Assembly: GCA_048938105.1 (NCBI GenBank) | Contig: JBHLMN010000004.1 | Coordinates: forward strand, 96,001-160,000 | Direction: 5' to 3' | DNA length: 64,000 bases | Source of the DNA: Promethearchaeota archaeon | Lineage (GTDB): Archaea > Asgardarchaeota > Heimdallarchaeia > Hodarchaeales > Hodarchaeaceae | Program-made: the position numbers and the translations under genes | Notes under the pieces: model-generated | Databases searched by the model: none | Seen by the model: only the letters and a program-made list of their open reading frames with translations | Told to the model about the DNA's origin: nothing | Shown: positions 15,553-37,550 of the stretch, in pieces | Position numbering within the stretch: position 1 is the stretch's first letter | How the letters are laid out: each line of letters opens with the position of its first letter

Positions 15553-16830
15553 TTATTTCATTAATTGTTCAGCTATATCATCCTTAGCTTCAGCTATCTC
15601 TTTTTGGATCTCTAGATTAGTATTTCTTTCATTTGTCATTTGTTTGGTTTTTTCATCAATCCTTTTAATGATATTTAAATCAAATTGATTGAGCCTAGTC
15701 TTCTCTTTAGTTGAATGATTCAGATTAGAGAAGTCACCTTTAACACTATCCCCACGCTCTGCTGTTTTGATTTCATTTATTCGCTCCTGGTCCACACTAG
15801 CAAGTCTATCAGCTGTGACTAAATTAGATGTTTCTAAGGGATTTTCACCTAAAAATACTTCAAGTTGGCGTTCATTATACTTTCTTAATTGATGGATTTC
15901 CTCTGGGGAAAGATCAGGTATCTGTGGATCATATGAGGAGTCTGGTAGTAAATCTTCCATGATTTTCGACTCGTCCATTACATTGTGTCTTTTTTTAGAT
16001 TCAGTTTCCGTCCTTGGAGAAGATGGAATTGTATTTTGGGAATTATTGTTTTGATTAATTTTTAGATGAGGAATGACATCCCTATTCTCAACCTTCTTAG
16101 AGGTGTAAGTTGGGGGTTGTGGAAATGTGTTATTTGAGGGAGAAGGAGGAGGGGATTGAGAAGATCTATCGAGAAAAGCACCATGATAATCATGGGTTCC
16201 GTTCTCTTCTCGTTGGAGATCAGAGGATAATAATGGAGTAAAAACCAATCCAGGAATGATTTTCTCAATCGCATTTTGAAAGTCCAAGCTACGTTCACGA
16301 ATATTAAAATGAAAGTCTTTTAGTTGATTCAGTGAGGATAATAACTGAGTATAATTACACTCAGGGTAATCTAATGTAAGATTTAAGATAGTATTACCAG
16401 AATCTTCAATGATTCGGAATTGATGTCCTTGAAGATTTTTCAAGACGGAAAGACGGAAGTCTTGAGGTTTCCTATCAACCTGAAAATTTATCAACACGGT
16501 TGTTAGGTTCTCTTTTTGGGAGTATAAGATAATAGCTTCTGGAATATCATCCAATTGAAAACGATCTTGGGTTGTTGGGAGATTGGTAAAATGAAAGGTC
16601 TCCAACTGGTGCTTAATATCTACATTATCCAAAATAAGGCCGAGAAAATATCCAACAGACCCCAGTACTAATACCATGAGAACACTTGCATCCGTAACAT
16701 AATAAAACAGGCATCCACAGAGAAAACCGATAATTGCGGTTAGCACACTGCGCTCTAACATTAATATTTCATCCATTATATGATATTTTGTTCCAGAGTA
16801 TTTATACTCAAAATCAGAGCTACTGGTCAT
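15553..16830 (-). CDS. Two-TM membrane protein with a cytoplasmic domain and disordered C-terminus
   Basis: N-terminal TM hairpin, Pro/Ser-rich linker and terminal coiled-coil; starts 8 nt downstream of the helicase stop. Confidence 0.7.
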   Translation of the reverse strand: MTSSSDFEYKYSGTKYHIMDEILMLERSVLTAIIGFLCGCLFYYVTDASVLMVLVLGSVGYFLGLILDNVDIKHQLETFHFTNLPTTQDRFQLDDIPEAIILYSQKENLTTVLINFQVDRKPQDFRLSVLKNLQGHQFRIIEDSGNTILNLTLDYPECNYTQLLSSLNQLKDFHFNIRERSLDFQNAIEKIIPGLVFTPLLSSDLQREENGTHDYHGAFLDRSSQSPPPSPSNNTFPQPPTYTSKKVENRDVIPHLKINQNNNSQNTIPSSPRTETESKKRHNVMDESKIMEDLLPDSSYDPQIPDLSPEEIHQLRKYNERQLEVFLGENPLETSNLVTADRLASVDQERINEIKTAERGDSVKGDFSNLNHSTKEKTRLNQFDLNIIKRIDEKTKQMTNERNTNLEIQKEIAEAKDDIAEQLMK

Positions 16831-16838
16831 AGTGGCTA

Positions 16839-19628
16839 CTAGTGGAGAGTTTGAGCGAACTGATTGTAATCATCGCCTAAAGGGATCTCCATTCCTTCAA
16901 GAATGTACATGAGAAGAGACCGTGCTCCAAATTTATCCAATTTGGTGTTATTATGACTACAGCGAGGTAGAAATGTGCATTTCGGACATCCTTGAGGATC
17001 TTTACATTCACAAGCCAAAATATCATAAGCTCTGGTGAATAGCTCGGAGAGATGATCCAAAAGCATAGCACAGACTCCTGAACCATTAGCTTGGTCAAAC
17101 AGTAAAACATAGCCTTGGGGAATTAAGGCTAATCCTCCAATTTCACTGAGCTGCCCCCCAATAAAGGGCAGACTAGCGTGGAGAAGGACATGAACCAAGG
17201 TATGCAACGCAGCTCTAAAAGTACTATGATCAGAACCTATAATATCTGTAAAAAGAGTTGGAACCTGAAAAAGGAGGCCTTTGGAATGGGAGGAATAATA
17301 GAGAGGATCACGAAGTCTATTCATGGAAGTACCATTCGGAGACTCTAAAACATAGCCAAAAACCGTCTGAAGGACCTTTGTTTCAACTGATACGACTTCT
17401 AGTCCAAAGACATGATGATGAGTATGGAGGGTCAAGATCTCTGGTTTTAGCGAGGAGAGAGGATAAGTATTTCCCCACACACTCTTTGGCTTGATAAGCT
17501 CTGCTACCCCTCGTATTCCGTTAAAATAAAAACTAATCACTTGATATCGTGTGCCCCCAGAATAATAAAACGCCCCAGGATATAGTTCTAACATAGCAAT
17601 AGGCATCACACGTTTTCCGATTTTTCTTCCCCCACGTATTTTTATCACCACCTCGTGGTTCCTCCCTCGAATCGAATATCTCCGTGCTTGTTCTTGTCCT
17701 TCTTGCGTTGGCAGGAGAATGGATTCATCTACCTGATTCAGAAGATTTTCTGCTACTAATCTACTAAGGATGGGAGCATATTCAGGAAACTCACTCACAT
17801 CAATGGGATGATCGAGGGAGGCACATAGTAACTGGTTTTCTGTGACGTTAGGATTGTCGGGGTCAAAAAATACTTCTTCTATGTCTTGATAATACCGCTT
17901 GGGGTATCGATAATAGTAGTTAGAAATTGGATCTTCGCTATTTAGATGAATGATTGCTACTGCTTCTTGGCCCTTCCGACCTGCCCTTCCGATTCTTTGC
18001 ATAGCACGATTTACTGCAATAGGAGGCGTAATAACAATGTCTAAATCTCCAATATCGATTCCCAATTCAAATGTGGGTGTAGCTACCAATAAATCGATTA
18101 TACTGTCTTTGAAATCAGTTTCAACCTGTTCTCGGATTTTCTTGTCTAGTCCTGCCCGATGGATACCAACTCTTTTTGCAGTCCCTCCCAGCTTCTGATA
18201 TAAGATTTCGGCATTGCGATGCGAGTCTTGAAATACCAACGTCTTACCATGATATTTGATGCTGTTGACAAGACTTGTTACACTATCCAAAGTCGACATT
18301 CCTTCAAAGGGAGCTACCATTAAGAAGTGTAAACGGCCCCGTCGTCCATTCTGACATTCGATTACTGTGATAGGCCGATCGAGCAATTTTGAGGCAAACG
18401 ATTGCGCATTGGCAACTGTAGCTGAGGCTCCAATAAATTGTAGTTTTGTTTGTATTATTCGTTCTAAACGGCGCAATATGAAGTACATGTTTGAGCCAAA
18501 AGTTCCAGTATACGAATGGATTTCATCTAAAATGACGATTTTAAGGCCTGCGAGTAAATCCTGGAAATAACTGCTATTTTTCCCGATTCCTAAGTGATAA
18601 TGCAAAATATCAGGGTTAGTAATCAAAATTTCAGGGGGATCAGCATAGATTTTTTTCCGCCAATAGTGGCTAGTGTCTCCATCAAAGACTCACACTGACA
18701 AGCCTAGAAGGGATGCGAAATCCTCAATTTTCCGAAGTTGATCTTTAGCCAAGGCTTTCATCGGATAGATCAAAAGTAATTGTACTCCACAGTCCTTATA
18801 CTCACGAATCTTGAGTAGTGTTGGAAGAAGGAACGCCTCGGTCTTACCATTCCCTGTGGGGGCAACAATGCACACATCTTGATCCTTTTGAATCATGGTT
18901 ATCGCTTCTTCTTGAAATTGGAAAAAGTGAGTGATTTCCCGTTTCTTTAACGCTTTAACAAGATTAGGGTCGTTTAAAATGTCAATTCTCTTTCCTATCT
19001 CCCCAGGTTGGTTTTCAAACAGACGATAATCAACTATTTGATGCTGTGCAAATTGGATTATTTTTTGGATAGGTGTTGGGAGATCCTTAATGGGAATGTC
19101 AAACCGATTATGGAATTCAGTCAGTGTGATGACACTTTTCGGAGCCTTACTTTGGATAGTCAGTCCATCCTGAAGACCTAGCTCCTGATGAGATGGCAAT
19201 TTTTTCAATTTTCCTGAACTCGCAAGGCGAAGTTCTGTTGCCTTTTGTAGGCAAGCATTTCCCCCCGTCAGGGAATAATATTTTTGTAAACAGAACTCTC
19301 CTTTCCGAACGTCTCTCTGCTTAAAATAGAGTGAAGATAACTGCTTCCATGTTTCCCTATGCGTGTTATTTAATTGTAATATTCGGCCAAACGCCTTCTT
19401 GGCATCACTAATTTGTTTGAATTTCTGAAAGTGATTAGCGATTTCCGTGAGTAACTCAACAGACGGGGTGGGATTCTCTGAAGCTACAATGGCTCTAAAC
19501 TCTGCTAAGATGTCTTCAAGATCACGAAATTCCTGATAATCCTCTATAGCGGAACGATAGCGTGTCCACAAGTTTTTTTTGTTGTCCCCATGAATAGTCA
19601 TGATTTCATCAATGATGATTATTAACAT
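16839..19628 (-). pseudogene. Hrq1/MrfA-like DEAH helicase with DUF1998 Zn domain and N-terminal TPRs, interrupted by one in-frame TGA at 18692-18690 (nonsense mutation, readthrough or sequencing error)
   Basis: Motifs APTGNGKT, YPMKALAKDQ, DEIH, SAT, ATPTFELGIDIG, QRIGRAGR and CECKDPQGCPKC. The frame continues across the stop: LLGLSV*VFDGDTSHYWRKKIYADPPEILITNPD. Confidence 0.85.
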
Positions 19629-19715: not shown

Positions 19716-22319
19716 TTATTCTTCTTTCTTTTTCACTTTTAACTCCTCAAGGAGGGAGCGTTGTTGGGTATGTAGGGTATAATATAGATCGAAAATCCCT
19801 GTTTTAGGATAAAGTGTTAATCCCAGTTCACGGGAAAACTTTTGCAAGCGTATTAAGTTATCATCAGGGAGAAAATCGTCTAGGTTTTTTTCAGGCCTTG
19901 AAGAAATGGCTGAAGCTTCTAATGCTTGATGGAGTTCTTCGGAGTTTGATTGTTGTTGGAGATGGCTGATCTCAAGTAGTAAGTTATTGACCATTGAGTG
20001 AGCTAGATCAAATAAATGGCGAAAATCCTGCCATTCTAATGAGTCAATCATATGTAAATCGTGGTATTCCGCAATTCGTAACCATGGAATGGAGGTGGCT
20101 CGAAGATAACGAACATAATTGACTAGACTACCTACCAAGTTTTTGACTTTTGTATTTGTCCTCTCCCTGTCGGCTTGGGAAGACGAAATATCAAAGTATG
20201 ATTCTAATCGCTGCAACTCTTGGCTGACTGCGTGAACCATGTCATGGGTAAGCGGAGCAGGGAGCTCATTGACGAAATCCAGCTGCGTTTGATAGTATTC
20301 TCGTCCTCGTTCTGTGATCGTCCAATAGGTGCTACCACTCTCTAAACCTGTGGTAAATAAGCCAAGTGACTGAAATTGGTCTAGCGCGAGCACCCCTTGC
20401 TTATCTTCCTCAATTAATCCCATGACTTCATCCACCTGACGTGGTTGGTAAATAAGCAGTTTCAAGAGCTTCATAAGTAGTTCATATTTTATGGGAGTTA
20501 ATCCCAACGTTTCTGACCCACGTTGCTTCGCCTCTGGAATAAATATGGGTTTAAAATCAATTGGACAGAAGTATTTCAGTTTGAAATGGTAAGCATTATT
20601 CTGGGGACTATCTTCACGGAAGAGGAGCCCCTCTCCTTCAGCAATCCCTACAAACTGTTGTTGGGTGTATATAGGGGATTTATGGGTGAAAGAAATTTCG
20701 TGTGATGTGAGGAGTAATTCCCGATCTTGTGCACTCGCGAGCTTCAGATAAATACTGTTCTTGATCTCTTCAAAGTTATCCATATTCGAAGCTAATGCCT
20801 GTAAGCTTTGGCTTCCAAGCATCATGATGTTATCGCGAGCGATGGTTTTACATGCATCCACCACAATGGATGAAATGATTTCCCGCTGACGGCTATAAGC
20901 TGTTCGTCTACTAAGGAATTCAGCTGCGTGTGTTAACACTACGCATCCATTTTTCATATTCTGTGAGAGGTAATGAAGGAGAAATCCAATAGTTGCGCGA
21001 CGAATAAGTGGTGGTTGAGCACCAAATTGAAAAAATGTTGCTGTTCTGTCCCTAACTAATGTGTTACTATAATGGCCCATGAATGCAGCATAATTAACTT
21101 CGGGAAACGACCGAAATTGCTCAAGAATACCTGCCAAGGCTTCAATAGCCATCATGTCTGCAAACATCATGTCTATCCCTTCTGTGTTGACTTGTACATC
21201 ACTCTCATTTCCCCCTCCAATACTCAACTTCACTTCTTGTAATGTAAATAATGAATTCGATTCCGCAGTCTTTTTGATTTGTGCTTCTAATGGTACTGAG
21301 TACCGTGCTGTAAGATATTCTGAAGTATGTAAAGAGCTGAGGAGAATTTGACTGATGAGATGCGATTTCCATGCTGCTCGCGCTTTGGCTGTCGTTTTTT
21401 TCCCACTTGCTGAAATAGGGATGATAACATCACATAGGTTGAGATGGATATTTGTTCCTAAGCGAAACAATTGTAGGTGGAAATCAGGAGGAGGACTGGC
21501 CTGAAAGTGCTTAATGAGACCATTGAGTTCGCTATAGGTATCGATAACGAAAATTTGGCGGGTAGAGTCAGTTCCCGCTAATGAGGCAATCAGTCGTTGG
21601 AGAATGGTAAGTACTTCGGTATTGGTTGAGCCACAGACGAGAACGGATCCTGTACGTAACGCTGGGAATCCTACTGGCAGCGCGGGGTTTGTAATCTGTG
21701 TACCTACCTTATGTACAACAGGTAGATCAGGGGCAACATAATGTTGGATGTGTCTCGATGGCACTCGATCCAATCGGAGAAATGGCTCAACCCACTTAGA
21801 TTGAAACCCTCTATAACCTTTAAAAACCGTGATACCTTCAGGTACACGTTCCCCATGGAAATGCACCCGAATGAGTCTTTCCCCACTCACTAGGGTAACT
21901 TGACATCCACTTGCTTCGAGAATGGTATGAACCATTGAACGCCGCTTTACGAATGCTTTTCGGGCATCTTGGACAATAGTTGGCAGTATTCGCTCTGATT
22001 TCACCCAGAATTTATACGAGACACGCACAAGGAGAAGTAAGGCGGTATGAGAGTCATCTCTATCATTCTGTTTTGATTTGGTGAATTGTGCGGGAAAAAT
22101 TTCTCGAATAACTTCGACTCCAGGATGATTGGTAGCATAAAACAGCGTTTGTGAGGCATTCTTAATGTCCTTGCGTGGTTGTAGAGCAAATATTGAGATC
22201 AACCCTGCCAGTGGGGCCCATGGGATGAATACTTTATCATAATCAATTTTTTCCAAGATAAAGAGGGTGGATTTATCCTCCAACACTTTAGACGCAAGCT
22301 TCGTGTGCCTGATAGCCAT
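19716..22319 (-). CDS. Catalytically degenerate VirB4/HerA (DUF87)-like P-loop protein with a C-terminal wHTH
   Basis: Motif order matches HerA/VirB4, but Walker A reads GSTNTEV and Walker B reads VVLTHAAEF. Also IFVIDTYSEL, MLGSQ, IYLKLASAQD, GEGLL and wHTH wing WTITERG. SD AGGAG. Confidence 0.6.
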   Translation of the reverse strand: MAIRHTKLASKVLEDKSTLFILEKIDYDKVFIPWAPLAGLISIFALQPRKDIKNASQTLFYATNHPGVEVIREIFPAQFTKSKQNDRDDSHTALLLLVRVSYKFWVKSERILPTIVQDARKAFVKRRSMVHTILEASGCQVTLVSGERLIRVHFHGERVPEGITVFKGYRGFQSKWVEPFLRLDRVPSRHIQHYVAPDLPVVHKVGTQITNPALPVGFPALRTGSVLVCGSTNTEVLTILQRLIASLAGTDSTRQIFVIDTYSELNGLIKHFQASPPPDFHLQLFRLGTNIHLNLCDVIIPISASGKKTTAKARAAWKSHLISQILLSSLHTSEYLTARYSVPLEAQIKKTAESNSLFTLQEVKLSIGGGNESDVQVNTEGIDMMFADMMAIEALAGILEQFRSFPEVNYAAFMGHYSNTLVRDRTATFFQFGAQPPLIRRATIGFLLHYLSQNMKNGCVVLTHAAEFLSRRTAYSRQREIISSIVVDACKTIARDNIMMLGSQSLQALASNMDNFEEIKNSIYLKLASAQDRELLLTSHEISFTHKSPIYTQQQFVGIAEGEGLLFREDSPQNNAYHFKLKYFCPIDFKPIFIPEAKQRGSETLGLTPIKYELLMKLLKLLIYQPRQVDEVMGLIEEDKQGVLALDQFQSLGLFTTGLESGSTYWTITERGREYYQTQLDFVNELPAPLTHDMVHAVSQELQRLESYFDISSSQADRERTNTKVKNLVGSLVNYVRYLRATSIPWLRIAEYHDLHMIDSLEWQDFRHLFDLAHSMVNNLLLEISHLQQQSNSEELHQALEASAISSRPEKNLDDFLPDDNLIRLQKFSRELGLTLYPKTGIFDLYYTLHTQQRSLLEELKVKKKEE

Positions 22320-22361: not shown

Positions 22362-22380
22362 CCTTTTTATATTCAAGATT
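22362..22380 (-). promoter_or_regulatory. Cluster promoter motif copy AATCTTGAATATAAAAAGG
   Basis: TATA about 45 nt upstream of ATG 22319; matches the other copies. Confidence 0.65.
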
Positions 22381-22720: not shown

Positions 22721-23518
22721 TCATTCAAAAATCAGTAATTCTAAATCGCTATGATCACAAGTGCTCCACTTCAAGGCTCGTTTCCTTCCATATTGTGTTA
22801 TAGTAGTTTTAAAGTGAAAATATGTCAGTAAGGTATCTAAGAGTGTTTCAAAGAAGCAATCCGAGGAACTTGAGCATAATAGACACTGATCACAATCAAT
22901 GGAATACTGAGTAGCTCGTCTCTCGATATGATTTCCATTTAGCGAATCAAGAATTCTATCAATAATTGTAAGCACATCACGCCTCTGTTGAATTGCATCT
23001 GCTAATTGGAATCTTTGAAGAAGCCTTTGAGCCACCAATATACCTAAATCTTCTAAATCTTTTGCTAAAAAGTCGTTTTCACTGATTAACCGTTCATTCT
23101 GCAACACCATCCCCAACTCAAGTCGTGTGTTGAGTCTGACTAAGTGTTCTCTCACTTTATCCTTGAAGGTATCAAAGATCCGTAGATTGAGGACAATTTC
23201 ATCTTGCCATTGTATTTCAGGAAAATTTCGGAAGAACTCGTGGATCAAGTACTCGAAGTCAGCCTCACACCAAACAGGATTAATGGTGGAGTCCAGCGCA
23301 AGCATAAAAATTAAATCATTTTGTTTCCTGAACATAAATGTGACCTTGGCCATTTGGAGAGCATTAATGGTATCCTCCTCGACTTGACTCACAAAGCTGT
23401 AGAGTGCACTGATTAAACTTGAACGGAGGAAACTATCAGAATCACTTTCATGGTGAGGTAGTTGAACTTGGAAAAGCATCAAACCATGGTCAAGAACACA
23501 AAGAAATTCACGGATCAA
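22721..23518 (-). CDS. Longin-domain protein with a C-terminal Cys-rich V4R-like domain
   Basis: Longin pattern GLMLF...LRSSLISALYSFVSQV...IFMLALD; C-terminal CDQCLLC-x5-CFF; SD GGAGGT. Confidence 0.6.
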   Translation of the reverse strand: MIREFLCVLDHGLMLFQVQLPHHESDSDSFLRSSLISALYSFVSQVEEDTINALQMAKVTFMFRKQNDLIFMLALDSTINPVWCEADFEYLIHEFFRNFPEIQWQDEIVLNLRIFDTFKDKVREHLVRLNTRLELGMVLQNERLISENDFLAKDLEDLGILVAQRLLQRFQLADAIQQRRDVLTIIDRILDSLNGNHIERRATQYSIDCDQCLLCSSSSDCFFETLLDTLLTYFHFKTTITQYGRKRALKWSTCDHSDLELLIFE

Positions 23519-23589: not shown

Positions 23590-24477
23590 TCAGTCCTCCC
23601 ACTCATAATCCTCGTCTAAGTCATGAAACTCAGCCTCTGTTGAGCTCACAAGTACACCCTTCTTTGATTTGAAAGGGACGAAGAACACTTGTGGCCTATT
23701 TAATTTCCCATGGAGCGCCAATAGCGCCACCAGTAATAATCCCCACAAATAAATGATAAACGCCACAGTGCCTATCAATACAGCGATCAAGAAGTCTTCT
23801 GTCCGCCAGAATGTGTCTAGGGTGAAAATTATTAGGACAAGGACACTGTTAAAAAGAAAAACAGGCCGAATATTCAGATTCAAAATGATCGTATTGATAA
23901 CGGACAACCAGTCATTCATTGTGGGCATCATGACGCCAAAAATCCCCACAAAAAAGTAGAAGTGGAGTGCGGCGCCAGCAACTGTAAGAAACACCTGAGA
24001 AAGTGGAGTGATCAGTGCCAAAGGAGTGATTAATATGTACCCTACCAACAATACCCAGCCAAACCGACTGGGAGCCATCGCGACTCGTCGTGCATAGTCA
24101 ATACGATTGACCGAGATAATAAGCATAGCGTTCTCATCGAATCGTCCAAGGCCAGTCGAAAGACTTGAACGGATGTGATGTTGGTCGTAAAGATCATCAA
24201 TGTCTTCGCTTTCCTCTTCTTTTTGTTCTAGGTCACGATAAATCTCCTTTGCCATGAACACATGTAGGTACACATGAAGGAAACGAAAAGGAAACCAAAG
24301 GATATTAGCAATCCGTTTCAGAAATGGGAGGATATGCAGGATCAATTGTAATAGCATATACATAAATAGTTGTTTGATAAAGAAGAGTATTAGATCCCGT
24401 GGGTCGAGGATTTCATGTACATACCAGTCAAAAAAACCCAGTAATCCTAAAGCAATCAGATCAAAGACAGTACTCAT
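23590..24477 (-). CDS. Membrane protein, M50-like zinc peptidase fold with degenerate HExxH
   Basis: PFRFLHVYLH (V in place of E), RVAMAP and MPTMND motifs; multiple TMs. Confidence 0.5.
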   Translation of the reverse strand: MSTVFDLIALGLLGFFDWYVHEILDPRDLILFFIKQLFMYMLLQLILHILPFLKRIANILWFPFRFLHVYLHVFMAKEIYRDLEQKEEESEDIDDLYDQHHIRSSLSTGLGRFDENAMLIISVNRIDYARRVAMAPSRFGWVLLVGYILITPLALITPLSQVFLTVAGAALHFYFFVGIFGVMMPTMNDWLSVINTIILNLNIRPVFLFNSVLVLIIFTLDTFWRTEDFLIAVLIGTVAFIIYLWGLLLVALLALHGKLNRPQVFFVPFKSKKGVLVSSTEAEFHDLDEDYEWED

Positions 24478-24739
24478 TATGCATCCCTAACCTATCCTTT
24501 GACTTCATGAATGTATAGTAATGAATCAAACGTTCTCTCTCTAAAGCGGCAAGTGCATACGATAACTGAGTTTCTACATCCGTTAGAATATGAAGTAAAG
24601 TATCGACCACTGACAGATAGTCTGGGAAGGCTGGTATGGTCTGTATCTGATAGAGGTCGGTTAAGAATTGGAGGAACTCCTGAAGAGTACCCTGAAGTTC
24701 TTGTACCCAGTATCCTAGACTAGTCTTTTCTATCAACAT
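24461..24739 (-). CDS. Small helical hypothetical protein
   Basis: Has a promoter motif copy upstream and overlaps the start of the next gene. Confidence 0.6.
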   Translation of the reverse strand: MLIEKTSLGYWVQELQGTLQEFLQFLTDLYQIQTIPAFPDYLSVVDTLLHILTDVETQLSYALAALERERLIHYYTFMKSKDRLGMHNEYCL

Positions 24740-28009: not shown

Positions 28010-29752
28010 TCAGCGTAAACCGAATAACCTTTTCATTTTCGCAAAGTAGAGGTCATAGGTATTATATAATGTTTGAAGACTTTGATAAACACGTACTGGT
28101 GGTAACATCGCCCGCATTTTCACTACTCGATAATCTAGAATAAGACTTGCAGCAAAATCCGACTCTGATCTAATTCCTCTCCCAATGGCTTGGGAGATAC
28201 TTCGTGTGACTGGAAGCATAGATATGAGTTTCGCTGTTCGCCACCCCCATTTTTGCTGATACAAAGAGTTGAGTAACCGGTTCGTTGCGTCTGGTCGAGG
28301 AAAGGGGAGTCCTGCTATGATAATCAATGACAATAAGCTTCGATTTGTCTTCGAATCCAGTATTTCAATCCCTTCAGAGAGCTTCCCTCCAATCACCCCA
28401 AATATGAGTTCATGGTTTTTCTCTCTCAATTCATCAATGAAAAAAGGGATTATACCAAGATTTTCGACATACACCTGTGGTATTGAAATATGAGCGAGGA
28501 TTTTTTGTTTCATTTCATGAGATGTGGCAAAGACAATGGTATGAAACGGATTACTGGAGTGCATCCGTTGTATGACGGTAGCCATTGCTTCATATGTTTT
28601 GGCACTTCGTTCAGTGAATTTAGACGTAAATTGACGATGATAAAGTATACCATTCAAACTGAACTGAAAGTCTGAGGGTATTCGAAGCGTAGGATAAGAC
28701 AATCCATATAGTGCCAGATATAGGGATAATGGTGTAAAAGTTCCCGACATCAGGATGACCCGAGTGAAATGCTTGTTCACAAAATCGAATGCTTGATGTG
28801 GGAAAGGATTCAGTTGGAGTAACTTGTTGTCTTCTGATATCCAAATATCTCCTCTTGAAGAAATGAAATCTTTGACTTTTAACAGCTGATTTTTTTCCAT
28901 GAGGGATAATTTGTATTCATGATCCAAGAATGCGTCTAATGCTGCCTCTGACAATGTTCGTGGTCTTTCCACTCTTCCATGATGTGAGCAGATCAACTCC
29001 TGTAACTCATCGATCACTTTTAAGGGGATAATTGTTTGAGCTTTATTTAAATCGTTCGTTGTGATCTCTGTTTCGATATCAGCTGTAAAATTATGCCCCT
29101 CGTCTATAATTGCCATGGTTTGTGGAAAAGAACTGCGTGAAAGAAGCTGGGAGAACATATTTTGAAGATTTTTACTTCGTAAATAGGTGTGTGTGGTAAT
29201 GACTATATTTGAATATGGTATACACCGTTTGATTACATGATAGGGACACCCAAACTCTTTAAACGCCTCTTGAAAAGCCTCAGTCGAAATTGCCTCATCA
29301 TGTGCTGTAATTGGGATTTGTTCGACAATAGCAGGGAAATCTTCCTCTGGAATAGATTTAGTCTGTTCAAGAAAGGGGCATCGTATTTGCCCACAGATCT
29401 TGTGATAGAAGTGGGGGATTTCGTCTCTTTTAATACATAAATCTGCTTTAAGAATGAGAGGAACAGCTGTTAAATAGCCATATTTTCGACTATTTGCGAT
29501 CTTATAAATCTCATTGAGGAATACCTGGAACACTTGTGTCTTCGTTCGAACAAAAATATATAATTGGTAGTTTTTTGATTTTACTAGCGGAAGTGCATGA
29601 ATCAACGCCATAATTGTTTTCCCAAATCCGACTGGGGCATGAATCATTGCTTTTGGATTCTTCTCAACAAATCGGAGAAACTTTGTTTGATAGGCCCGCA
29701 GTTCTGGATGAGGAAAGAGCTGTAGTGCTGGGGGAAGATTAGTATCAATCAT
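28010..29752 (-). CDS. xpd: XPD/Rad3/DinG-family Fe-S helicase
   Basis: Q motif RAYQ, APVGFGKT, four Fe-S Cys (LC..KIC..RCP..GCPY), DEGHN, SGT, SEGIE, GLPFP, QAIGRGIR. An alternative GTG start exists at 29821. Confidence 0.8.
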   Translation of the reverse strand: MIDTNLPPALQLFPHPELRAYQTKFLRFVEKNPKAMIHAPVGFGKTIMALIHALPLVKSKNYQLYIFVRTKTQVFQVFLNEIYKIANSRKYGYLTAVPLILKADLCIKRDEIPHFYHKICGQIRCPFLEQTKSIPEEDFPAIVEQIPITAHDEAISTEAFQEAFKEFGCPYHVIKRCIPYSNIVITTHTYLRSKNLQNMFSQLLSRSSFPQTMAIIDEGHNFTADIETEITTNDLNKAQTIIPLKVIDELQELICSHHGRVERPRTLSEAALDAFLDHEYKLSLMEKNQLLKVKDFISSRGDIWISEDNKLLQLNPFPHQAFDFVNKHFTRVILMSGTFTPLSLYLALYGLSYPTLRIPSDFQFSLNGILYHRQFTSKFTERSAKTYEAMATVIQRMHSSNPFHTIVFATSHEMKQKILAHISIPQVYVENLGIIPFFIDELREKNHELIFGVIGGKLSEGIEILDSKTNRSLLSLIIIAGLPFPRPDATNRLLNSLYQQKWGWRTAKLISMLPVTRSISQAIGRGIRSESDFAASLILDYRVVKMRAMLPPVRVYQSLQTLYNTYDLYFAKMKRLFGLR

Positions 29753-29795
29753 GGTGTTTCCACAGAGAATTTGTGGTAGACATTTCTGGAGGTAG

Positions 29796-30818
29796 TTATT
29801 TGGAATTAAAGTCTCGGACACCCTCGCTGGTAATTGCGAACTCTACTTTCCCATCAGGAAATTCAGGGCTTTTTGTTAATGAGGCAGTTCGTTTGGTTGC
29901 TTTCCCCTTTCGGATGAATATCCGAGTAGTAACCGTATGACCTACAATATTGCCTCCAACAGGCTTATTTGGATCCCCAAAAAATATCGCGTCAGGTTTG
30001 GCGGATACTTGGTTCGTCACGAGACCAATACAATTCATTATTTCAGCCTGTTTAGCAATAAACGCTAAATGTCTCCCAATCAGTTGTTGTCGTTCTGCCA
30101 GTGTTCCACGTCCCACGAACTCACTTCTGAAATGTGACATGAGGGAGTCTACAATTATCAGACCAACGTTTGGAACCATAGTAAGTGCCTCTTCGGTGAG
30201 TGCCATTTGGTGTTCACTATTGTAAGCTCTACCAACCGTAATTCGTGAAAGTACGGTGTCTGGATCTATATCTAATGCCTAAGCTATTTGTACTATTCGA
30301 TTAAAGCGGAATATTCCTTCTGAGTCGATCCAAATCACATCTCGGTCGAGGTATTTAACGCAATTAACTGCCAATTGGTGGGCAATCTGGGTCTTTCCAC
30401 AGCCATTCTCACCAGCGATTTCCGTGACACTTCCCGTTTCAAATCCTCCCCCTATGAGTTCATTGAACGTTTTTGATCCTGTCGTTAATTTTATCCGTGT
30501 TTTTGCTGCTTCCTCGTAATCTGTCCCTTTTTTTAATCCAAGGTCAAACTGTGCTCTTGCTTCACGGATTAGATGAGCTGCAGTTTTCTCCGCAATTCCC
30601 GAAATTTCAGTTAATTGAGCCCGTGTTGCTAGAGCTATCGCTTCTTTGCTTCCATAACCCGCAGTTTCTAGTCGTTGTCTTGTCGTGGGGCCAACGCCTG
30701 TTATTGTTTCTAAGAATGGTTTCTCTGAGGTTGTGTCCTTTTTCTTAACTTTCTTTGTCCTTTTCTCTTCAATTGGCTCAGAACTAATTCCTTCGTCTTT
30801 TGTTTCGACTTTTGCCAT
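29796..30818 (-). pseudogene. radA: RadA recombinase paralog interrupted by one in-frame TAG at 30281-30279 (340 aa if read through)
   Basis: HhH GVGPTT, Walker A GENGCGKT, IVDS, FRSEFVGRGTLAERQQ, TNQV. The frame continues across the stop: RIVQIA*ALDIDPDTVLSRITVGRAYNSEHQM. Confidence 0.9.
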
Positions 30819-30890: not shown

Positions 30891-31004
30891 CCTTTTTATA
30901 CTCAAAATCACCAATTTTTCGAATTTCTAGTACAAAAATATAATTCTCATTCTTACCTTATATATTCAAAATCGATGGGAGAATAGATTTCTAGTATAAA
31001 AGAG
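30891..31004. promoter_or_regulatory. Tandemly duplicated back-to-back promoter module (four motif copies) between radA and the large surface-protein gene
   Basis: Minus-strand copies at 30891-30909 and 30956-30973; plus-strand copies at 30922-30940 and 30986-31004. Both pairs have a 12-nt spacer. Confidence 0.7.
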
Positions 31005-31056: not shown

Positions 31057-34000
31057 ATGAGTCAAATCTCAAGAATAAATCAAGAAAAAATAATTGGCTT
31101 TTGGCTTTTAACAAGTATTTATCTTGTTATCATTCTGATTGCTATTACTCCTGGCATAGCCACACCATTAAAGACATCAACAACCCTTCTCTCTGATATT
31201 GGGGCTGCAGGACTTGATGACACGATTCAATTCACAATTTTTGTTTATACAGGTTTTGACCCTGTCCCAACTGGTGTTGTTCGTATAATTGATACCAATA
31301 CAAGTGAATACATTGATACCACTATTCTAGGTGGGGAAGCAAAAGTTAATTGGACAGTTTTTGAGCCTTTCATAGAAGGGGTTCATGTCTTTAAGGCCAA
31401 CTATCAAGGATTTTTAGATTACTCCCCTTCATCTGGCATATGCAGTATTTATTTTGATGAATTTACTCCTGGGAGTTCTCGTACAACGACTATCACGCTC
31501 AATAGTAATTCTACTGTAGTTTTTAAGAACTCATCTGTCCGATTCACCGTTGAACTCGAAATTATTAATTCTGTTCAACCCTACTTCAAGGGGGGATATA
31601 TTTATGTTAAGAACAATAATCTTAGCGGATCGCCTATGATCCATACTTATGGACCACTCCCTCTAGACCCTTCTGCTCTCTTAACCTACTCCTTCGATTA
31701 TCAGATCCCTATCTTTTCCCCAGTAGGGATCAATGCGTTTTTTGTGGAATATACTGGAAGTTCGCAATCCCAAACAAAACCTTGCACTTCCTCTCATCAC
31801 AATATAACAGTTCTAAGTACAGGTTTCTGGTTAGATCAATCAATAGATCAAGTTGACCTTCAACGCGAAGAGAGTACATTAGAACTAAACACAACAATAC
31901 TGGGAGATAATCCCATAGGATTAGAATTAAAGATGTACTCTTCCCTCAATGACCAAAAATTCATCATAGATGATCGTATTCTCGAATCACGGAATGTAAT
32001 AACGTATTTCTTACCTAATAGTTCAGTACCCGTAGGTATTCTTTCAATAATTACCGAGTTAATCGACCCAAGTACCAAAACTCAATATACAAACACAACT
32101 ACGGCTGTATCAATCATAGATTATGCTCGAATTGACCATTCAGAGAATGCGACTCAATATCGGCACAATGAAAGTATTCGCATCGAAGCTTACATCACTG
32201 AACAGGATGTCTGGACTCACCCAGTTGTCACTACTGTGGAATTACAGGATGTCACCGATGGTAATCGTTCATTAATCAATAAAACGACTAATCAGGATGG
32301 ATTCGTGGTGATCGATTACCCCATTCCTGATAATGCAACGGTTGGAAATCATAAATTTAGTCTAACAACTCATAATACCAACAAGTTCATTTTAGATATT
32401 ACAGAGACCTTCCTCATTCCCATTAAGGGTATAACTGAAATCGACGTAACTTATGAGAGTGGTGGAGTGGACAGGAATGAAATTACTCTTATAGAAGCGA
32501 CTGTTCTTTCAGGAGGAGTGGCAATCAGCGAGGGTTTGATAGTGTTAGAGTTTGCCATCAATGACTCTGTTATTGAAACACGGGATTGTGAACCTGGTCT
32601 GGAATTTGAGTATTTCATTGAACCTTCGCATCCGAGGGGTATTATGGAATATCAGATTCATTTTCTCGGATCTTACAATTACGATGAGCATGTCGAACCT
32701 ATTGACCTGCCAGTCTTCTCAAACCCTACATTTAGTACATCAGGCCAAAACGCGTCGGAAGTCATTAAAGGACACACTGTGCGTATTTGGGGCCGATTAG
32801 TGGATGAAATTGGCCAACCTGTGTGTTATGAAGAAATCGAGTTGACTGATACTACTATTGGCACGTTTCTTGGTACTAGTGTAACTGACGATCAAGGCCT
32901 GTTCTTTTACGACTATTTCATCTCCCAGTCCACTCAGATCGGAGTTCATTTCGTTGAGATAACCTATTCAGGCAACATTTTAGAATTCTATCGTGCGTCA
33001 ACAAACAACCCTCTCAAAAGTATCACTGTGAGACCTCCGTTGTCTGTCATGATTGAAGCTGAGGTGGTTGCAAATCACTGGACGATTATTTCTCTAGAAG
33101 GAGGATTAAATGATGATATCCTCTTAGAATGGCAAAAATATGGTGAAATAGACTGGAGTTATTTGGGTGTCGTTGTACTCAATTCTTCAGGTCGGGGGCT
33201 GTATAACTGGTCTACTCCCTATTATAAAGGTGAATTTGCCATTCGGGCAACAGGCCCCAATAGTACAAAATATGACTTCTCTACCATGTATGCTATCCCT
33301 TACATTACAGTGGCGGGGGATGAAATTGGTAATGTTAACGATCCTTACCTTTTTACAGTCAATTCAGCGGAAAAATATCAAATATGGATAAGCGAGCAAC
33401 TTTGGCAGGACTGGCGTGAAGCAGGAATTCATCAGTACGACTATATTTTTACAGGTCGAGGATTACGAGGCATCACTATCGTTAGTAACGATACCTATAC
33501 CTACTATCAAGAATATCATCATAACATTGCTATATATGAAGATGTATTTGTTACTCTTTCAGCACCTTTAGAAGCATTCGTGAATCTCTCGATAAATTTA
33601 GATGGTACTGTGATCGGGGAGGTATCGGGTCCAATAGAGGGTATGGATGCTACTTTAGTGGTCAATGGTACTGACCTACAAGTTGACTCCACCAGTGGTG
33701 CTGGACATTATTATTTCTCAGTAGTATTCGAAGATCCAGGTAACTACAAACTTATGGTAAAGACTCCTTCTAGTGATACTACATTTTATTGCGCTTCTTT
33801 TAGTGAGGAATCAAATATCTTCATCAATTCTATTCCTGCTGACTTCGACATTTTAAGTCCCTTAAATCAGACATATGGAGCTATTGTGGAGGTATCCATT
33901 GTTGGAGATGCTGAAAATTATTGGTATTGCATTGAACCAATTGATATAACTAATATCTCTTGGTTTACTCCGATTTATCGAACTCTGCCTGAAGGTAATT

Positions 34001-35871
34001 ATACTTGCCATGTCTATGGGCAAAACAATTATGGGATTGTTTCGCATATTTACTCCCCATTTATTGTTGACACAACCGCTCCATCATTAATATTGACTAG
34101 TCCAAGAAACACAACTTATACCATTAATGATATTTCAATTTCATATCTAACAGATGAAAATGAAGTATTAGTTGTGCTAGATGATGTGGAATTAGAGGGT
34201 GTTAGCTCGGGTACACTACTTTCTGGTTTGGCTGAGGGTGTCCATAACTTAACAATCTTAGCTTACGATCAAGTTGGTAACATGGTCGATCGAATAGCCT
34301 TGTTTAGAGTGGATACAGTTCCCCCCAGTCTAGAAATTAGTTCACCTTACAATCAAAGCTATACTACCGAAATTGAAATCATATTGAGATCAAATGGGAG
34401 TACTGTTCTCTATTATATTCCTACAGTCCATAAATATAATCAAACCTATACAGACCCAATATCTCTTAATCTTTCGATTGGTAAGTATATACTCCAAGTT
34501 TATGCATTTGATGATGCAGGGAACACTTGTACAGGGTCTGTTGCTTTTTCTATTGTCCAAACCATCGAATTACTAATTAATCCTAAATGCAAAGATGTCG
34601 ATGGGGCTGGAAATTACGAAATCTCCACCCAAATAATGAGTCATCCAAATTTTGATTTAGTAGGGATCTACCTCAATGGCACTTATTTAGGAAGTTTAAA
34701 CTGGAGTTACTTATACCAAGATTATCGTTTATCTTTTCAACTTGAGCGTCCTGGTCTTTGGCAGCTTACTCTCTTTGCCAAAACTACCCTAGAAGAGTAT
34801 GATTTTCATTATTTCGAGATTGAGTGGAATCCCCCTGTTCCTCTGTTTAAATCAGTATCAGTAGCATTTGATTCATCACAGTATGAGGTTCGTGCGCAAA
34901 TTGATACAGGAGTCCTCTCTCTAGACAGAGTTTTACTTTTTGTGAATGATACATCCTATCCCTTGACATATTCACCTTTTGGGGATCGCTGGGTAGTTAA
35001 TATCCCTGTTCATCCAAAGAACGACACTTTGATCTTTTATACTTGGTACAAATGGGATGAGTTACCTTCAGCTCACTACGAGCATTATATCTCTTGGTTT
35101 GCTCCTAGTATCATCCTTGAAGAGTCCATTATTCGAAGAGAGAATTTCTCGCTTAGTATTAGAATTGAGAAACAAAATGCCTCAATTGTTACTCAATCTG
35201 TAAAATTACTAATCATTAATGGTTCTTCTGAAATTGATGTGGTAGGAAACCTTGTGTACGAGTCTGTAACGGGAAGTTACCAACAGTGGGAATTTAACTC
35301 TCCTAATCTCCCTCCTAGGATTTGGAATTATAGAATCAAGGTCAGAGATATTTATGGTTCTCAACGGGTTCTTAATCTGATATTTAATGCCACGGATCTT
35401 CCACCCCAATTCGGAAATAGCGCTGCTTTTCTCGTTTCTCGTTACACAGCAGGAGAGTTATGGCAGATTGAGGTCGCTGCAAGTGATGATTACCAAATTG
35501 AGAGAGTTATTTTATATGTTGATGGAATTGATAAAACCTCAACCACTAACAATGATACACACTTTGTCTTCCAAGTTTGGTTGACTGAAGGAGTACACAG
35601 TCTTCAAGTGGCTGCTTATGATGATATTGGTCAAAAAAATACTTTAGATCTCCCTTCGATTGAAGTGATTCTTATTCCTTCCACAACATCATCAACCACT
35701 CCTATTGAGACTCGTACTTCTGACTCTTCTTTCCCTAGAAATACCAATTCGTCGACAACTAGTAATAGTGACGAAGAAGCTGATGGTCTTATTACTCTTG
35801 GTTTTGCAGGGAGTATTGTTGGAGGAATAGTTATGGTTGGAAATATCGTGGCACGAAAGAGGCGGGATTGA
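31057..35871 (+). CDS. 1604-aa surface protein with multiple Ig-like domains and a C-terminal membrane anchor
   Basis: Signal peptide; Ig-like signatures (ANYQGFLDYSPS, DTTAPSLILTSP, GVHNLTILAYDQVGN); S/T linker, TM and RKRR tail. Confidence 0.8.
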   Translation: MSQISRINQEKIIGFWLLTSIYLVIILIAITPGIATPLKTSTTLLSDIGAAGLDDTIQFTIFVYTGFDPVPTGVVRIIDTNTSEYIDTTILGGEAKVNWTVFEPFIEGVHVFKANYQGFLDYSPSSGICSIYFDEFTPGSSRTTTITLNSNSTVVFKNSSVRFTVELEIINSVQPYFKGGYIYVKNNNLSGSPMIHTYGPLPLDPSALLTYSFDYQIPIFSPVGINAFFVEYTGSSQSQTKPCTSSHHNITVLSTGFWLDQSIDQVDLQREESTLELNTTILGDNPIGLELKMYSSLNDQKFIIDDRILESRNVITYFLPNSSVPVGILSIITELIDPSTKTQYTNTTTAVSIIDYARIDHSENATQYRHNESIRIEAYITEQDVWTHPVVTTVELQDVTDGNRSLINKTTNQDGFVVIDYPIPDNATVGNHKFSLTTHNTNKFILDITETFLIPIKGITEIDVTYESGGVDRNEITLIEATVLSGGVAISEGLIVLEFAINDSVIETRDCEPGLEFEYFIEPSHPRGIMEYQIHFLGSYNYDEHVEPIDLPVFSNPTFSTSGQNASEVIKGHTVRIWGRLVDEIGQPVCYEEIELTDTTIGTFLGTSVTDDQGLFFYDYFISQSTQIGVHFVEITYSGNILEFYRASTNNPLKSITVRPPLSVMIEAEVVANHWTIISLEGGLNDDILLEWQKYGEIDWSYLGVVVLNSSGRGLYNWSTPYYKGEFAIRATGPNSTKYDFSTMYAIPYITVAGDEIGNVNDPYLFTVNSAEKYQIWISEQLWQDWREAGIHQYDYIFTGRGLRGITIVSNDTYTYYQEYHHNIAIYEDVFVTLSAPLEAFVNLSINLDGTVIGEVSGPIEGMDATLVVNGTDLQVDSTSGAGHYYFSVVFEDPGNYKLMVKTPSSDTTFYCASFSEESNIFINSIPADFDILSPLNQTYGAIVEVSIVGDAENYWYCIEPIDITNISWFTPIYRTLPEGNYTCHVYGQNNYGIVSHIYSPFIVDTTAPSLILTSPRNTTYTINDISISYLTDENEVLVVLDDVELEGVSSGTLLSGLAEGVHNLTILAYDQVGNMVDRIALFRVDTVPPSLEISSPYNQSYTTEIEIILRSNGSTVLYYIPTVHKYNQTYTDPISLNLSIGKYILQVYAFDDAGNTCTGSVAFSIVQTIELLINPKCKDVDGAGNYEISTQIMSHPNFDLVGIYLNGTYLGSLNWSYLYQDYRLSFQLERPGLWQLTLFAKTTLEEYDFHYFEIEWNPPVPLFKSVSVAFDSSQYEVRAQIDTGVLSLDRVLLFVNDTSYPLTYSPFGDRWVVNIPVHPKNDTLIFYTWYKWDELPSAHYEHYISWFAPSIILEESIIRRENFSLSIRIEKQNASIVTQSVKLLIINGSSEIDVVGNLVYESVTGSYQQWEFNSPNLPPRIWNYRIKVRDIYGSQRVLNLIFNATDLPPQFGNSAAFLVSRYTAGELWQIEVAASDDYQIERVILYVDGIDKTSTTNNDTHFVFQVWLTEGVHSLQVAAYDDIGQKNTLDLPSIEVILIPSTTSSTTPIETRTSDSSFPRNTNSSTTSNSDEEADGLITLGFAGSIVGGIVMVGNIVARKRRD

Positions 35872-35874
35872 AAA

Positions 35875-36468
35875 ATGAAAAACAGTACCCATTATTTGTT
35901 TTCTGTGGGACTACTTAATCTTTATGCATTGTACTTGATCTCAGACCCACTTCTTGCTTGGTTTTGTTTGGGATTATCCTTTCCCTTAAGTGGGATCAGT
36001 TTTATCCCTAATTTCTTAGATAGCTATACCGCTGCGAGTTTCCAGTACGAAGGAGTACAGTTCAAGCATCGGGCTGCTATTCAATATCGGCATCCTCTGA
36101 CCCACTCTCCTTGGACTTTAGGTTATTTTGTACCAGGCTTTTATATTGCAGAGAAAACCTCTGAACCAGTTTTTATAATCATTGTTTCCGCTTTATTCTT
36201 AGGTTGGTGTTCACACCTTTTCTTAGACGCATTAAATCCTGAAGGGATCCCCTTAGGGAAGACTCCTGTTTATACTCCTCATCCTGTAAAACATTATTCA
36301 TGGCGTCAACCTACCAAAGCTCGTACCTTCAGATTAGCAAGAATCCCTTTTAATCATTTTAAAGCCAATCTGGTGTTATCACGTATTGGATTACTTTTTT
36401 TAGCCTTAAATGTTGCTGATTTAGTTCTCAATCATCTTAACATTATCTCTGAGGTGATGTCATTTTGA
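35875..36468 (+). CDS. YdjM/DUF457-like membrane metal-dependent hydrolase
   Basis: STH, HPLTHS and SHLFLDALNPEGIP motifs. Confidence 0.7.
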   Translation: MKNSTHYLFSVGLLNLYALYLISDPLLAWFCLGLSFPLSGISFIPNFLDSYTAASFQYEGVQFKHRAAIQYRHPLTHSPWTLGYFVPGFYIAEKTSEPVFIIIVSALFLGWCSHLFLDALNPEGIPLGKTPVYTPHPVKHYSWRQPTKARTFRLARIPFNHFKANLVLSRIGLLFLALNVADLVLNHLNIISEVMSF

Positions 36469-37550
36469 GTGATTTCAAGGACATAAGCATATTCCTGATC
36501 CTAGTTATTACATCTCTTTTAAGCCTTCAAACCAATTCTTTGGCATCATTTTCAGACGCAGCCCCACACAGTCCTGCTATACACACAGTTACTTCGGAGT
36601 CTTACGACCTGAGTATTTCAGAAGTCGTCACAGAAGTTGAAAGGACATTTCAACGGAACATTGTGTTATCACGTGTTTGGGATCGATTATTACTTAACAT
36701 GAGTGTCCAAAATTTTGGTGATCCCCTTGATAACGTCTTCCTTCACGTTATCACAAATGGTGCTCCTATTCACGCTACATTCCACGCTGTGGAAACTGTA
36801 GGATTAGTTCAGGCTTTTTCCTATCAGTTTGAGATTCCTCAGACACTAGTAATGACTCTGAATCATACACAAGAGACTGAATTACAATTGAAGATTCTCA
36901 TTCTGTTAGATCATAGTGTAACTTGGCGGACTCCCTCCGTAAACTTTGCGATTCAAAAAGCCCATTTGATAGCTCTTGACTTGATCCAACCTCTAGAAAG
37001 AAGTATCCTCCCCTTATCATATGCCAATCCTCAGTATCAAATCCAACCAGTGAAATATTCTTTCCAAAGGAGAAATCTCTTAGCATCTCCCATTCTTTAC
37101 GTGCATATTCCTGCAAATATGCAACTTCTTTGCACTCTATTGGTCACACTTCAAGGAACAGGAGTAGATTATCTAGTGGTAGATGAGCAGACGGTTTATG
37201 CTAATGAGGGAGGCCATTCAATTAGTATGAATTTCACAATCACTAAAACATCTGAAGATCAAGACATATCTTTATCGATGTCGATAGCGCCTGATTATGA
37301 AGGATTGGGTGGAGAGACACGAGTCTTCCTATCCATCACTGTGGTTGGAATGCTTGAACCTTATTCCTCCCCTCTTGTAGCTGCTCCAGTTACAGCTGTG
37401 TTAGGGGCCCACCCTATTCCTTGGCTATTGATGATACCTATTCTTGCTATTACTTTGTTTGGTATTCCTTATTATTTGGTCTACCAAGACCATGTAACAG
37501 ATAAGGATAACACCCTCCTTGATCCGAAGAACCAGACCAAAATAAAGTAG
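36465..37550 (+). CDS. Secreted beta-rich protein with a C-terminal TM anchor
   Basis: TTGA overlap with the upstream stop, SD GAGGTGA, signal peptide and C-terminal TM. Confidence 0.7.
   Translation: MSDFKDISIFLILVITSLLSLQTNSLASFSDAAPHSPAIHTVTSESYDLSISEVVTEVERTFQRNIVLSRVWDRLLLNMSVQNFGDPLDNVFLHVITNGAPIHATFHAVETVGLVQAFSYQFEIPQTLVMTLNHTQETELQLKILILLDHSVTWRTPSVNFAIQKAHLIALDLIQPLERSILPLSYANPQYQIQPVKYSFQRRNLLASPILYVHIPANMQLLCTLLVTLQGTGVDYLVVDEQTVYANEGGHSISMNFTITKTSEDQDISLSMSIAPDYEGLGGETRVFLSITVVGMLEPYSSPLVAAPVTAVLGAHPIPWLLMIPILAITLFGIPYYLVYQDHVTDKDNTLLDPKNQTKIK

Follow-up and report, generated by a model that had tools for sequence, protein, structure and literature searches.

A conserved Hodarchaeales gene cluster combining recombinase and helicase paralogs, non-catalytic HerA- and Hef-like proteins and envelope proteins

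Background

The crenarchaeal Ced system combines a VirB4/HerA-like ATPase, CedB, with membrane proteins for the import of DNA, and DNA damage induces it along with recombination genes. DNA-import systems of the Ced and Ted types have been described in Sulfolobales and Thermoproteales, with Ups pili (PMC9905601, PMC11823120). Here we describe a block of 14 open reading frames (ORFs) at positions 15553-37550 of a 64,000-nucleotide stretch of DNA, hereafter the window, from the genome of a Hodarchaeales archaeon (5.85 Mb, 65 contigs, GC content 0.351; our genome G000, in which the window is C27:96001-160000). The block is a real, conserved and co-regulated cluster in which DNA enzymes are combined with catalytically dead look-alikes and with surface and membrane proteins, among them an 867-aa protein, g867, that has the HerA/VirB4 fold and no Walker A motif. 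No description of this cluster was found in the literature searched.

The cluster resembles the Ced/Ted and Ups systems in having a HerA/VirB4-fold protein, small two-transmembrane (two-TM) and polytopic membrane proteins, a cell-contact component and a link to recombination, and like Ced/Ted it is chromosomal and conserved within its lineage. However, no sequence relation to Ced/Ted was detected, and no VirB2-like pilin or VirB6-like channel was recognised here. g867 has neither a TM segment nor a Walker A motif and thus cannot be a CedB-like motor or power transport, and since Ced/Ted calls for a VirB4/CedB-like ATPase capable of ATP hydrolysis (Walker A/B), the cluster is not a member of that group (PMC9905601). 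In contrast to Ups, contact would here be made by a giant protein of immunoglobulin (Ig)-like repeats instead of type IV pili, and in contrast to Ced/Ted, the recombinase and helicases are encoded within the cluster itself.

Two other groups of HerA-fold systems invite comparison. As in HerA-NurA (with Mre11-Rad50), a HerA-fold protein is encoded beside DNA-repair partners, but g867 is catalytically dead, carries a winged-helix and helical tail, and has RadA and XPD as partners instead of NurA, Mre11 or Rad50, families which were absent among the Pfam matches of the block proteins. Having neither an adjacent NurA nor an active HerA, the cluster is not a HerA-NurA end-resection module. In the defence complexes SIR2-HerA (Nezha), DUF4297-HerA and DndFGH, the same HerA/DndH fold (Z 20-25) provides a platform on which effectors assemble, but there the HerA proteins hydrolyse ATP, act with toxic effectors and are patchily distributed, whereas g867 is inactive, vertically conserved and accompanied by a recombinase. 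With regard to that recombinase, a second full-length RadA paralog clade has been reported in some Asgard lineages (PMC12722695). The likeness lies in extra full-length RadA paralogs in Heimdallarchaeia-type Asgards, although that clade is not equated with the RadA clade described here; the terms 'operon' and 'neighbor' do not occur in that paper, whereas the present paralog is tied to a dead HerA-like protein, an XPD helicase and an envelope operon.

Results and discussion

A conserved cluster of DNA-processing and envelope genes

An earlier reading of this DNA from its letters and translations (the sequence-only reading) had listed a mixture of DNA-processing and envelope genes and proposed that they form one unit with a common promoter. 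Every gene listed is present at its coordinates, and the mixture was borne out as one conserved unit with a common promoter. None of the three outcomes that had been named as speaking against the proposal (no co-conservation, a genome-wide motif and no VirB4/HerA fold) occurred. The layout of the block is as follows (window positions).

15553-16830 (likely gene 15553-16776), minus strand: g425, with a two-TM hairpin, an alpha/beta domain and a disordered/coiled tail
16839-19628, minus strand: Hrq1/MrfA-type superfamily 2 (SF2) helicase paralog with an N-terminal tetratricopeptide repeat (TPR) region; Pfam DEAD, Helicase_C and MZB
19716-22319, minus strand: g867, HerA/VirB4/DndH fold, no sequence-level family match
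22721-23518, minus strand: g265, soluble, with a putative longin-like N-terminal domain seen only below threshold
23590-24477, minus strand: g295, polytopic membrane protein with about six TM segments
24461-24739, minus strand: g92, small ORF between a promoter motif and g295, present in G003 too
24977-25495, minus strand: g172, small conserved protein, possibly PD-(D/E)xK-like on weak evidence
25912-27837, plus strand: Hef-like SF2 pseudo-helicase, corresponding to the helicase part of Hef only
28010-29821, minus strand: XPD/Rad3-family Fe-S helicase paralog, DEAD_2 and Helicase_C_2
29796-30818, minus strand: RadA/Rad51-family recombinase paralog, full-length, with a helix-hairpin-helix (HhH) domain and an ATPase core
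30895-31000, no strand: divergent control region between radA and the surface operon, with three motif copies
31057-35871, plus strand: g1604, giant surface protein of Ig-like repeats, with a signal/TM segment at the N-terminus and a TM anchor at the C-terminus
35875-36468, plus strand: YdjM-like membrane protein of 197 aa (PF04307, 26.2 bits against a cut-off of 29)
36465-37550, plus strand: g361, with a signal peptide, an extracellular part rich in beta structure and a TM anchor conserved at the C-terminus

The genes g1604, YdjM and g361 form one operon, divergent from radA. The XPD gene probably starts about 20 codons downstream of its listed start and the Hrq1 gene at 19601, and the true start of g425 is probably 16776, since its promoter motif sits inside the longer ORF that extends to 16830.

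The block proteins were mapped onto the neighbourhoods of 13 relatives (designated by G numbers). At least seven of 12 genes occur together in the loci of 11 of the 13, although in shuffled order, and full-length orthologs of g867, 43-88% identical, are present in 19 of 20 genomes of the genus. The commonest arrangement reads g295 ... <-g361<-YdjM<-g1604 / radA->g867->xpd / <-Hef-like / g172-> / <-g425<-Hrq1. It is complete in G004, G006, G013, G018 and G019, is followed as far as the contig end in G017, and is found with a relocated g867 in G009, G010 and G011; the short contig of G005 holds the part from g867 to Hrq1. G001 has a rearranged form, and the genome studied here shares with G007 and G003 the rearranged order g172-g92-g295-(g265)-g867-Hrq1-g425. 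G015 differs in that g867, XPD, Hef-like and g425, which were the genes searched there, lie far apart. The genes that flank the block in the window are not found beside the cluster in relatives, indicating that its borders were correctly drawn.

One of these flanking genes (14906-15469), which adjoins the cluster here and not in relatives, encodes a MarR/TrmB-type regulator. Beyond g361 lies a 101-aa minus-strand ORF (37608-37913) with no matches and an odd composition, which is probably not a gene.

An inactive HerA-like protein

The proposal that the 867-aa protein is VirB4/HerA-like found support at the level of the fold. The AlphaFold model, generated from 13 orthologs with a mean predicted local distance difference test score (pLDDT) of 67.6, comprises a beta-rich N-terminal domain, then an ATPase-like core (about residues 190-593) and finally a tail with winged-helix and helical parts. 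When this predicted structure was searched with Foldseek, the top 50 matches were all HerA, VirB4 or DndH, with E-values down to 9e-11, and the best were the HerA structures 9x1l and 4d2i. VIA-align, covering residues ~190-593 (310-342 residues aligned, root-mean-square deviation 3.7-4.8), gave Z-scores of 25.1 for both DndH-C (7es4) and VirB4 (4ag5), 22.6 for HerA (4d2i) and 21.5 for TrwB (1e9s). At the sequence level, no kinship to HerA was seen in Pfam, NCBIfam, PADLOC, PHROGs or PDB sequences, and hhalign against the genome's own HerA returned a probability of 0.7%. At other loci, the genome encodes nine ordinary DUF87/HerA proteins. The g867 family itself is very small, with 53 members among 1.84 billion cluster representatives at E <= 0.001, and in 82 species genomes of the class it was detected in two families of one order only (19 of 20 and 2 of 2 genomes) and in none of 59 genomes elsewhere.

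The P-loop position of g867 is occupied by CGS[TSDN][NK]xE in all 13 orthologs, and the Walker B position reads HAAE in this genome. The ratio of non-synonymous to synonymous substitutions (dN/dS) is about 0.07-0.15 across g867, XPD, RadA, Hrq1 and the Hef-like protein, with values of 0.071 for g867 and 0.152 for the Hef-like protein. This purifying selection indicates that g867 and the Hef-like protein are functional, non-catalytic components. The idea that the system is built partly from pseudo-enzymes is supported by these two proteins, whose catalytic motifs are missing in all orthologs.

G003 retains only a 48-residue remnant of the g867 type present in this genome, located beside Hrq1 (L092 4548-4694), together with a full g867 of another type, 63% identical, on another contig (L093 2303-4912). 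This pattern hints at gene replacement within the genus.

A second set of recombination and repair enzymes

The recombinase had been correctly identified as a RadA paralog. It matches the Rad51 family of Pfam (PF08423, 122 + 71 bits) and HHH_5, and shows the HhH N-terminal domain, Rad51 core and Walker A/B motifs of a full-length RadA, its frame being broken here by one TAG codon; the G018 ortholog aligns with P. furiosus RadA over its full length (2.8e-78). Likewise, the XPD helicase has the DEAD_2 and Helicase_C_2 domains with motifs I and II (APVGFGKT and DEGH/DEAH), which are kept together with four conserved Cys in 11 of 11 orthologs. It scored 114.7 with the rad3 model TIGR00604, below the cut-off of 246.95, and is thus a divergent paralog. 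The TPR-Hrq1/MrfA helicase is also as expected, with DEAD, Helicase_C and the MZB zinc domain, and with APTGNGKT as motif I and DEIH. With their motifs kept, RadA, XPD and Hrq1 are three apparently active enzymes.

For the Hef-like protein the similarity to the helicase part held (NF010337, E=1.6e-23), but the catalytic motifs and the nuclease are absent. The match covers positions 22-359 of the 781-position model with 82.8 bits against a cut-off of 610; motifs I and II are missing in 10 of 10 orthologs, no ERCC4 nuclease domain was found, and the C-terminal ~170 aa vary between species. A true Hef, nuclease included, is encoded at C52 (658 bits), and the genome further holds a second DEAD_2 helicase, a second MrfA/Hrq1 and four other RadA-family genes. 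Each of the four DNA enzymes of the block (RadA, XPD, Hrq1 and Hef-like) is accordingly an additional paralog of a gene or genes at another locus of the genome.

The gene order radA, dead HerA-like gene, xpd persists in the neighbourhoods of distant members of the g867 family (E=9e-36 and E=5e-10), which lie between the other two genes. The RadA proteins of this triad form a clade of their own, with support of 100/100 within the genus and 88/82 when two distant members are included, and stand apart in the tree from three of this genome's other RadA genes. The triad is an ancient operon, present also in very distant relatives. A small TrmB/MarR gene was also seen near the distant triad in L088.

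The five full-length RadA/Rad51-family genes of the genome (C52:28072, C41:166313, C11:34013, C11:140539 and window 29796-30818) score 236-318 bits on PF08423. Five is an unusually high count for an archaeon, and in the tree the branch leading to C11b is very long.

The cluster might also be an anti-virus or anti-plasmid defence system, in which invading DNA is attacked at the envelope by the helicases and nuclease-like proteins together with the HerA-like platform. The fold matches of g867 include SIR2-HerA, DUF4297-HerA and DndH, in which HerA-fold proteins partner effectors; moreover, the XPD-like protein matches PADLOC typeIV_DinG (E=1.6e-55), and the Hrq1 helicase matches the BrxH, DruE and DrmA models. 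However, nine of the 11 block proteins scanned had no PADLOC match and the two that matched belong to generic helicase families. The near-universal vertical conservation in the genus (19 of 20 genomes) is also unlike that of patchy defence islands, and the cluster contains a full-length recombinase under strong purifying selection. We therefore regard a defence role as improbable.

A shared promoter motif and an elevated GC content

Most transcription units had been suggested to share one promoter motif. Six of nine units indeed carry it and it is not genome-wide, but neither is it exclusive to the block. The sequence GATTTYKARTATAAA has seven exact matches in the genome, four of them in the block, and a position weight matrix (PWM) built from seven block sites gave 15 genome hits at a score >=18, seven of them in the block; with only 15 such hits, a general promoter consensus was rejected. 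The sites in the block are as follows.

16801-16815, minus strand: GATTTTGAGTATAAA, serving g425 and lying within the 3' end region of the helicase gene; kept in G007, G017, G010 and G009
22366-22380, minus strand: AATCTTGAATATAAA, a degenerate copy upstream of g867
24772-24786, minus strand: GATTTTTAGTATAAA, for g92-g295
25525-25541, minus strand: CATTTTGATTATATAAA, for g172
30895-30909 and 30959-30973, minus strand: two copies directed towards radA
30986-31000, plus strand: one copy directed towards the surface operon

In other species, PWM sites lie directly upstream of the orthologous g425, g1604, radA, g867 and g172 genes, which identifies the motif as a conserved cis-element.

Outside the block, the motif stands before operons for LuxE-like/LuxC-like proteins (acyl-protein synthetase / acyl-CoA reductase) at G000:C28:110303-113440 (L009) and G000:C27:315094-318204 (L012), in tandem arrays of two to three copies that are spaced about 60 bp from each other, as they are upstream of radA. 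Strong copies were also located at G000:C56:132114 (L010) and G000:C18:141088 (L007). One of these two loci has no ORF of at least 50 aa for 1.5 kb downstream, and may give rise to a non-coding transcript; the other precedes small ORFs of 100 and 131 aa.

The block had looked GC-rich by eye, and with a GC content of 0.388 against a genome mean of 0.351 (standard deviation 0.013) it lies at the 99.9th percentile of 22-kb windows and is the GC-richest such stretch of the genome. The cluster of G007 is also elevated (0.415 vs 0.353). As the excess is seen only in this genome, in G007 and weakly in G003, and not in deeper species, it was rejected as a general feature of such clusters.

Such an excess could mark foreign origin, the block then being a domesticated or decaying mobile element of conjugative or viral descent. 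A VirB4/TrwB-type fold is typical of conjugation, the flanks vary between species, and the remnant and the 63%-identical copy of g867 in G003 are signs of replacement, all of which would fit. On the other hand, the excess is missing in deeper species, the cluster is found in nearly all species with a divergence that tracks relatedness, no integrase-type Pfam family was present among the 20 scanned proteins of the block and its flanks, and the window contains no tRNA gene. A mobile element is thus a very improbable explanation.

Envelope proteins and their link to the DNA enzymes

The giant Ig-repeat protein of 1604 aa was described correctly as a surface protein, with TM segments at both its N- and C-terminus, and the second anchored surface protein is the 361-aa g361, with its signal peptide and C-terminal TM anchor. 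Other assignments held in part. The 197-aa protein is similar to PF04307, as expected for YdjM, but at 26 bits it falls just below the cut-off. In the 265-aa protein, proposed to combine longin and V4R domains, longin was seen only below threshold in three orthologs (E 0.016-0.11) and V4R was not detected; g265 is also loosely tied to the cluster, being nearby in G007, G005 and G001. The 295-aa protein is indeed a polytopic membrane protein, but its M50-like label is only an Atlas lead at 0.80. Its invariant residues are H68/H72 (HxxxH without E), H172 and D189, and as a candidate for a polytopic channel it has about six TM segments, weak Atlas leads to membrane zincin/M50B families and no detectable relation to solved structures. 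The PD-(D/E)xK label of the 172-aa g172 is similarly weak (sce7726, E=3.9e-4); D48, E63, E65 and the cysteines C80, C83 and C87 are invariant. Profile searches of PDB sequences with g295, g361 and g172 gave nothing at E < 0.2.

Neighbouring genes in relatives strengthen the connection between these proteins and DNA processing. In nine relatives the surface operon is extended by a ~145-aa gene and a gene for a RadB-like RecA-fold ATPase (AAA_25 E=7.5e-6, Rad51 E=1.7e-3); chance adjacency would hardly account for the co-transcription of a surface protein with a RecA-family ATPase. A 267-aa gene lies ahead of g295 in seven of the nine relatives and an adjacent 147-aa gene in eight; the 267-aa protein of G006 scores 22.2 bits on PDDEXK_1, at the family cut-off. 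Furthermore, distant paralogs of g867 (23-25% identity) adjoin paralogs of the YdjM, g361 and g295 genes (YdjM', g361' and g295') in five genomes, together with a classical AAA ATPase, and these modules provide independent support for the link between the HerA-like protein and membrane proteins.

The paralogous module consists of a HerA-like pseudo-ATPase gene divergent from YdjM', g361', a ~236-aa gene, an AAA ATPase gene (PF00004) and g295'. It was found at L081, L082, L084 and L087 (G003:C165, G017:C7, G012:C191 and G019:C230), and is not present in this genome.

A further link to the membrane may be provided by the 425-aa g425, whose proposed two-TM nature was borne out and whose gene is always downstream of the Hrq1 helicase gene. 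It has a TM hairpin, a generic feature, at its N-terminus, an alpha/beta domain at ~70-181 and a tail with a conserved IPDLSPEE motif. A complex between this tail and the TPR region of Hrq1 was predicted with an ipSAE of 0.59, against 0.00 for the best control; of 80 solved complexes, 58 reach the mark applied, as do 2 of 110 mismatches, but values of 0.60 or less that still reach it come from only 7 of the 80 and from both mismatches. Runs agreed in at least 51% of contacts, and the pLDDT of the partners was at least 50. The prediction weakly supports the view that g425 holds the helicase at the membrane. The best fold match of g425 (Z 7.0, YbjN/type III secretion chaperone-like) lies within background, no pilin-like match appeared in the fold searches, and the Atlas look-up gave nothing usable.

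Premature stop codons in this genome

One in-frame stop splits radA, and one splits the Hrq1 gene, into two called ORFs. In radA the stop is a TAG at 30279-30281, where G018 has a Glu codon (E). In the Hrq1 gene it is a TGA at 18690-18692, a position held by AGA (R) or AAA (K) in relatives. Both stops are private to this genome, and Hrq1 is intact in G007 and G018. Recoding (selenocysteine, pyrrolysine or an alternative code) was rejected, because the codons of relatives at these positions are ordinary sense codons and because one stop is TGA and the other TAG. The view that the two genes are long-standing pseudogenes was likewise rejected, their dN/dS of 0.066-0.083 being as in the intact neighbours. 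With such low values, the stops are very recent, polymorphic or assembly errors.

G003 resembles this genome in that the RadB-like, 145-aa and 267-aa genes are missing from the loci examined, and it keeps a frameshifted 147-aa homolog. The clade of this genome and G003 has a reduced and rearranged version of the cluster, and the stops together with four absent accessory genes suggest that the system may be impaired in the genome studied here.

Possible function of the cluster

Our tentative reading, which we hold at something short of an even chance, is that the block is a local, rearranged and partly disabled copy of an order-restricted Hodarchaeales regulon for handling DNA at the envelope, followed by recombination. 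The regulon would comprise a second recombination and repair set (RadA, XPD, Hrq1/MrfA), a pair of dead scaffolds and at least five envelope proteins. The dead HerA-like protein may act as a ring or platform on which RadA and XPD are organised, and through its link to YdjM, g361 and g295 it would place them at the membrane, while g425 would tether the Hrq1 helicase there. Surface contact would then be followed by the handling of DNA arriving at, or exchanged across, the envelope, and finally by recombination, the system being a functional analogue of Ups/Ced and not a homologue. DNA capture or exchange at the envelope is favoured since it best explains the co-transcription of surface protein and recombinase. 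Of the sequence-only reading, which had proposed a cell-contact, DNA-transfer and recombination regulon, the conserved unit and the common promoter stand, but DNA transfer is unproven, no pilin, channel or motor having been found.

Several observations weigh against this reading. No Walker A motif was found in any of the 53 representatives of the g867 family; no VirB2-like pilin, VirB6-like channel or active translocase was recognised among the block proteins; and for the envelope proteins, the profile, Atlas and fold searches revealed no recognisable relatives of known function. Tandem motif copies also precede the two paralogous LuxE/LuxC-like operons, and single copies a few other loci; the regulon as a whole is therefore not specific to DNA. 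In this genome, moreover, nonsense codons are found in two of the three enzymes that appear to be active, and the RadB-like, 145-aa, 147-aa and 267-aa genes were not found (tblastn, 1e-4).

The same genes could instead constitute an intracellular damage-response regulon that involves no DNA transfer, in which Hrq1/MrfA, XPD/FANCJ-like, Hef/FANCM-like, RadA and RadB-like paralogs mend crosslinks or breaks and the envelope proteins are merely co-induced stress proteins. The enzyme families present do serve crosslink, nucleotide excision and recombination repair in other organisms, and ydjM is LexA-regulated in E. coli. That transport machinery was not found and that the motif serves non-DNA operons too is also in keeping with this explanation. 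Yet the genome has housekeeping copies of all four enzymes at other loci, in relatives the gene of the giant surface protein shares its transcript with that of a RecA-fold ATPase, and the HerA-like protein is independently tied to membrane proteins in the paralogous modules; the linkage is tighter than co-induction would require. We consider purely intracellular repair a serious possibility, although a rather unlikely one.

Conclusions

The cluster is a clean case of pseudo-enzymes, a dead HerA and a dead Hef, that are retained by strong purifying selection as structural components of a DNA-processing machine. It also supplies an Asgard RadA paralog with partners, namely a dead HerA-like platform, an XPD-type helicase, a putatively membrane-tethered Hrq1 and a surface operon, as well as with a conserved promoter element, so that the question of its role becomes testable in enrichment cultures and in vitro. 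Hodarchaeales are the archaea usually placed closest to eukaryotes and are central to models of eukaryogenesis. They may, though we think it unlikely, own a dedicated and co-regulated apparatus for contact-dependent DNA exchange with a specialised recombinase paralog, built on non-catalytic HerA- and Hef-like scaffolds and unrelated to Ced/Ted or type IV secretion. If true, such an apparatus would parallel, in function, a recombination programme specific to mating.

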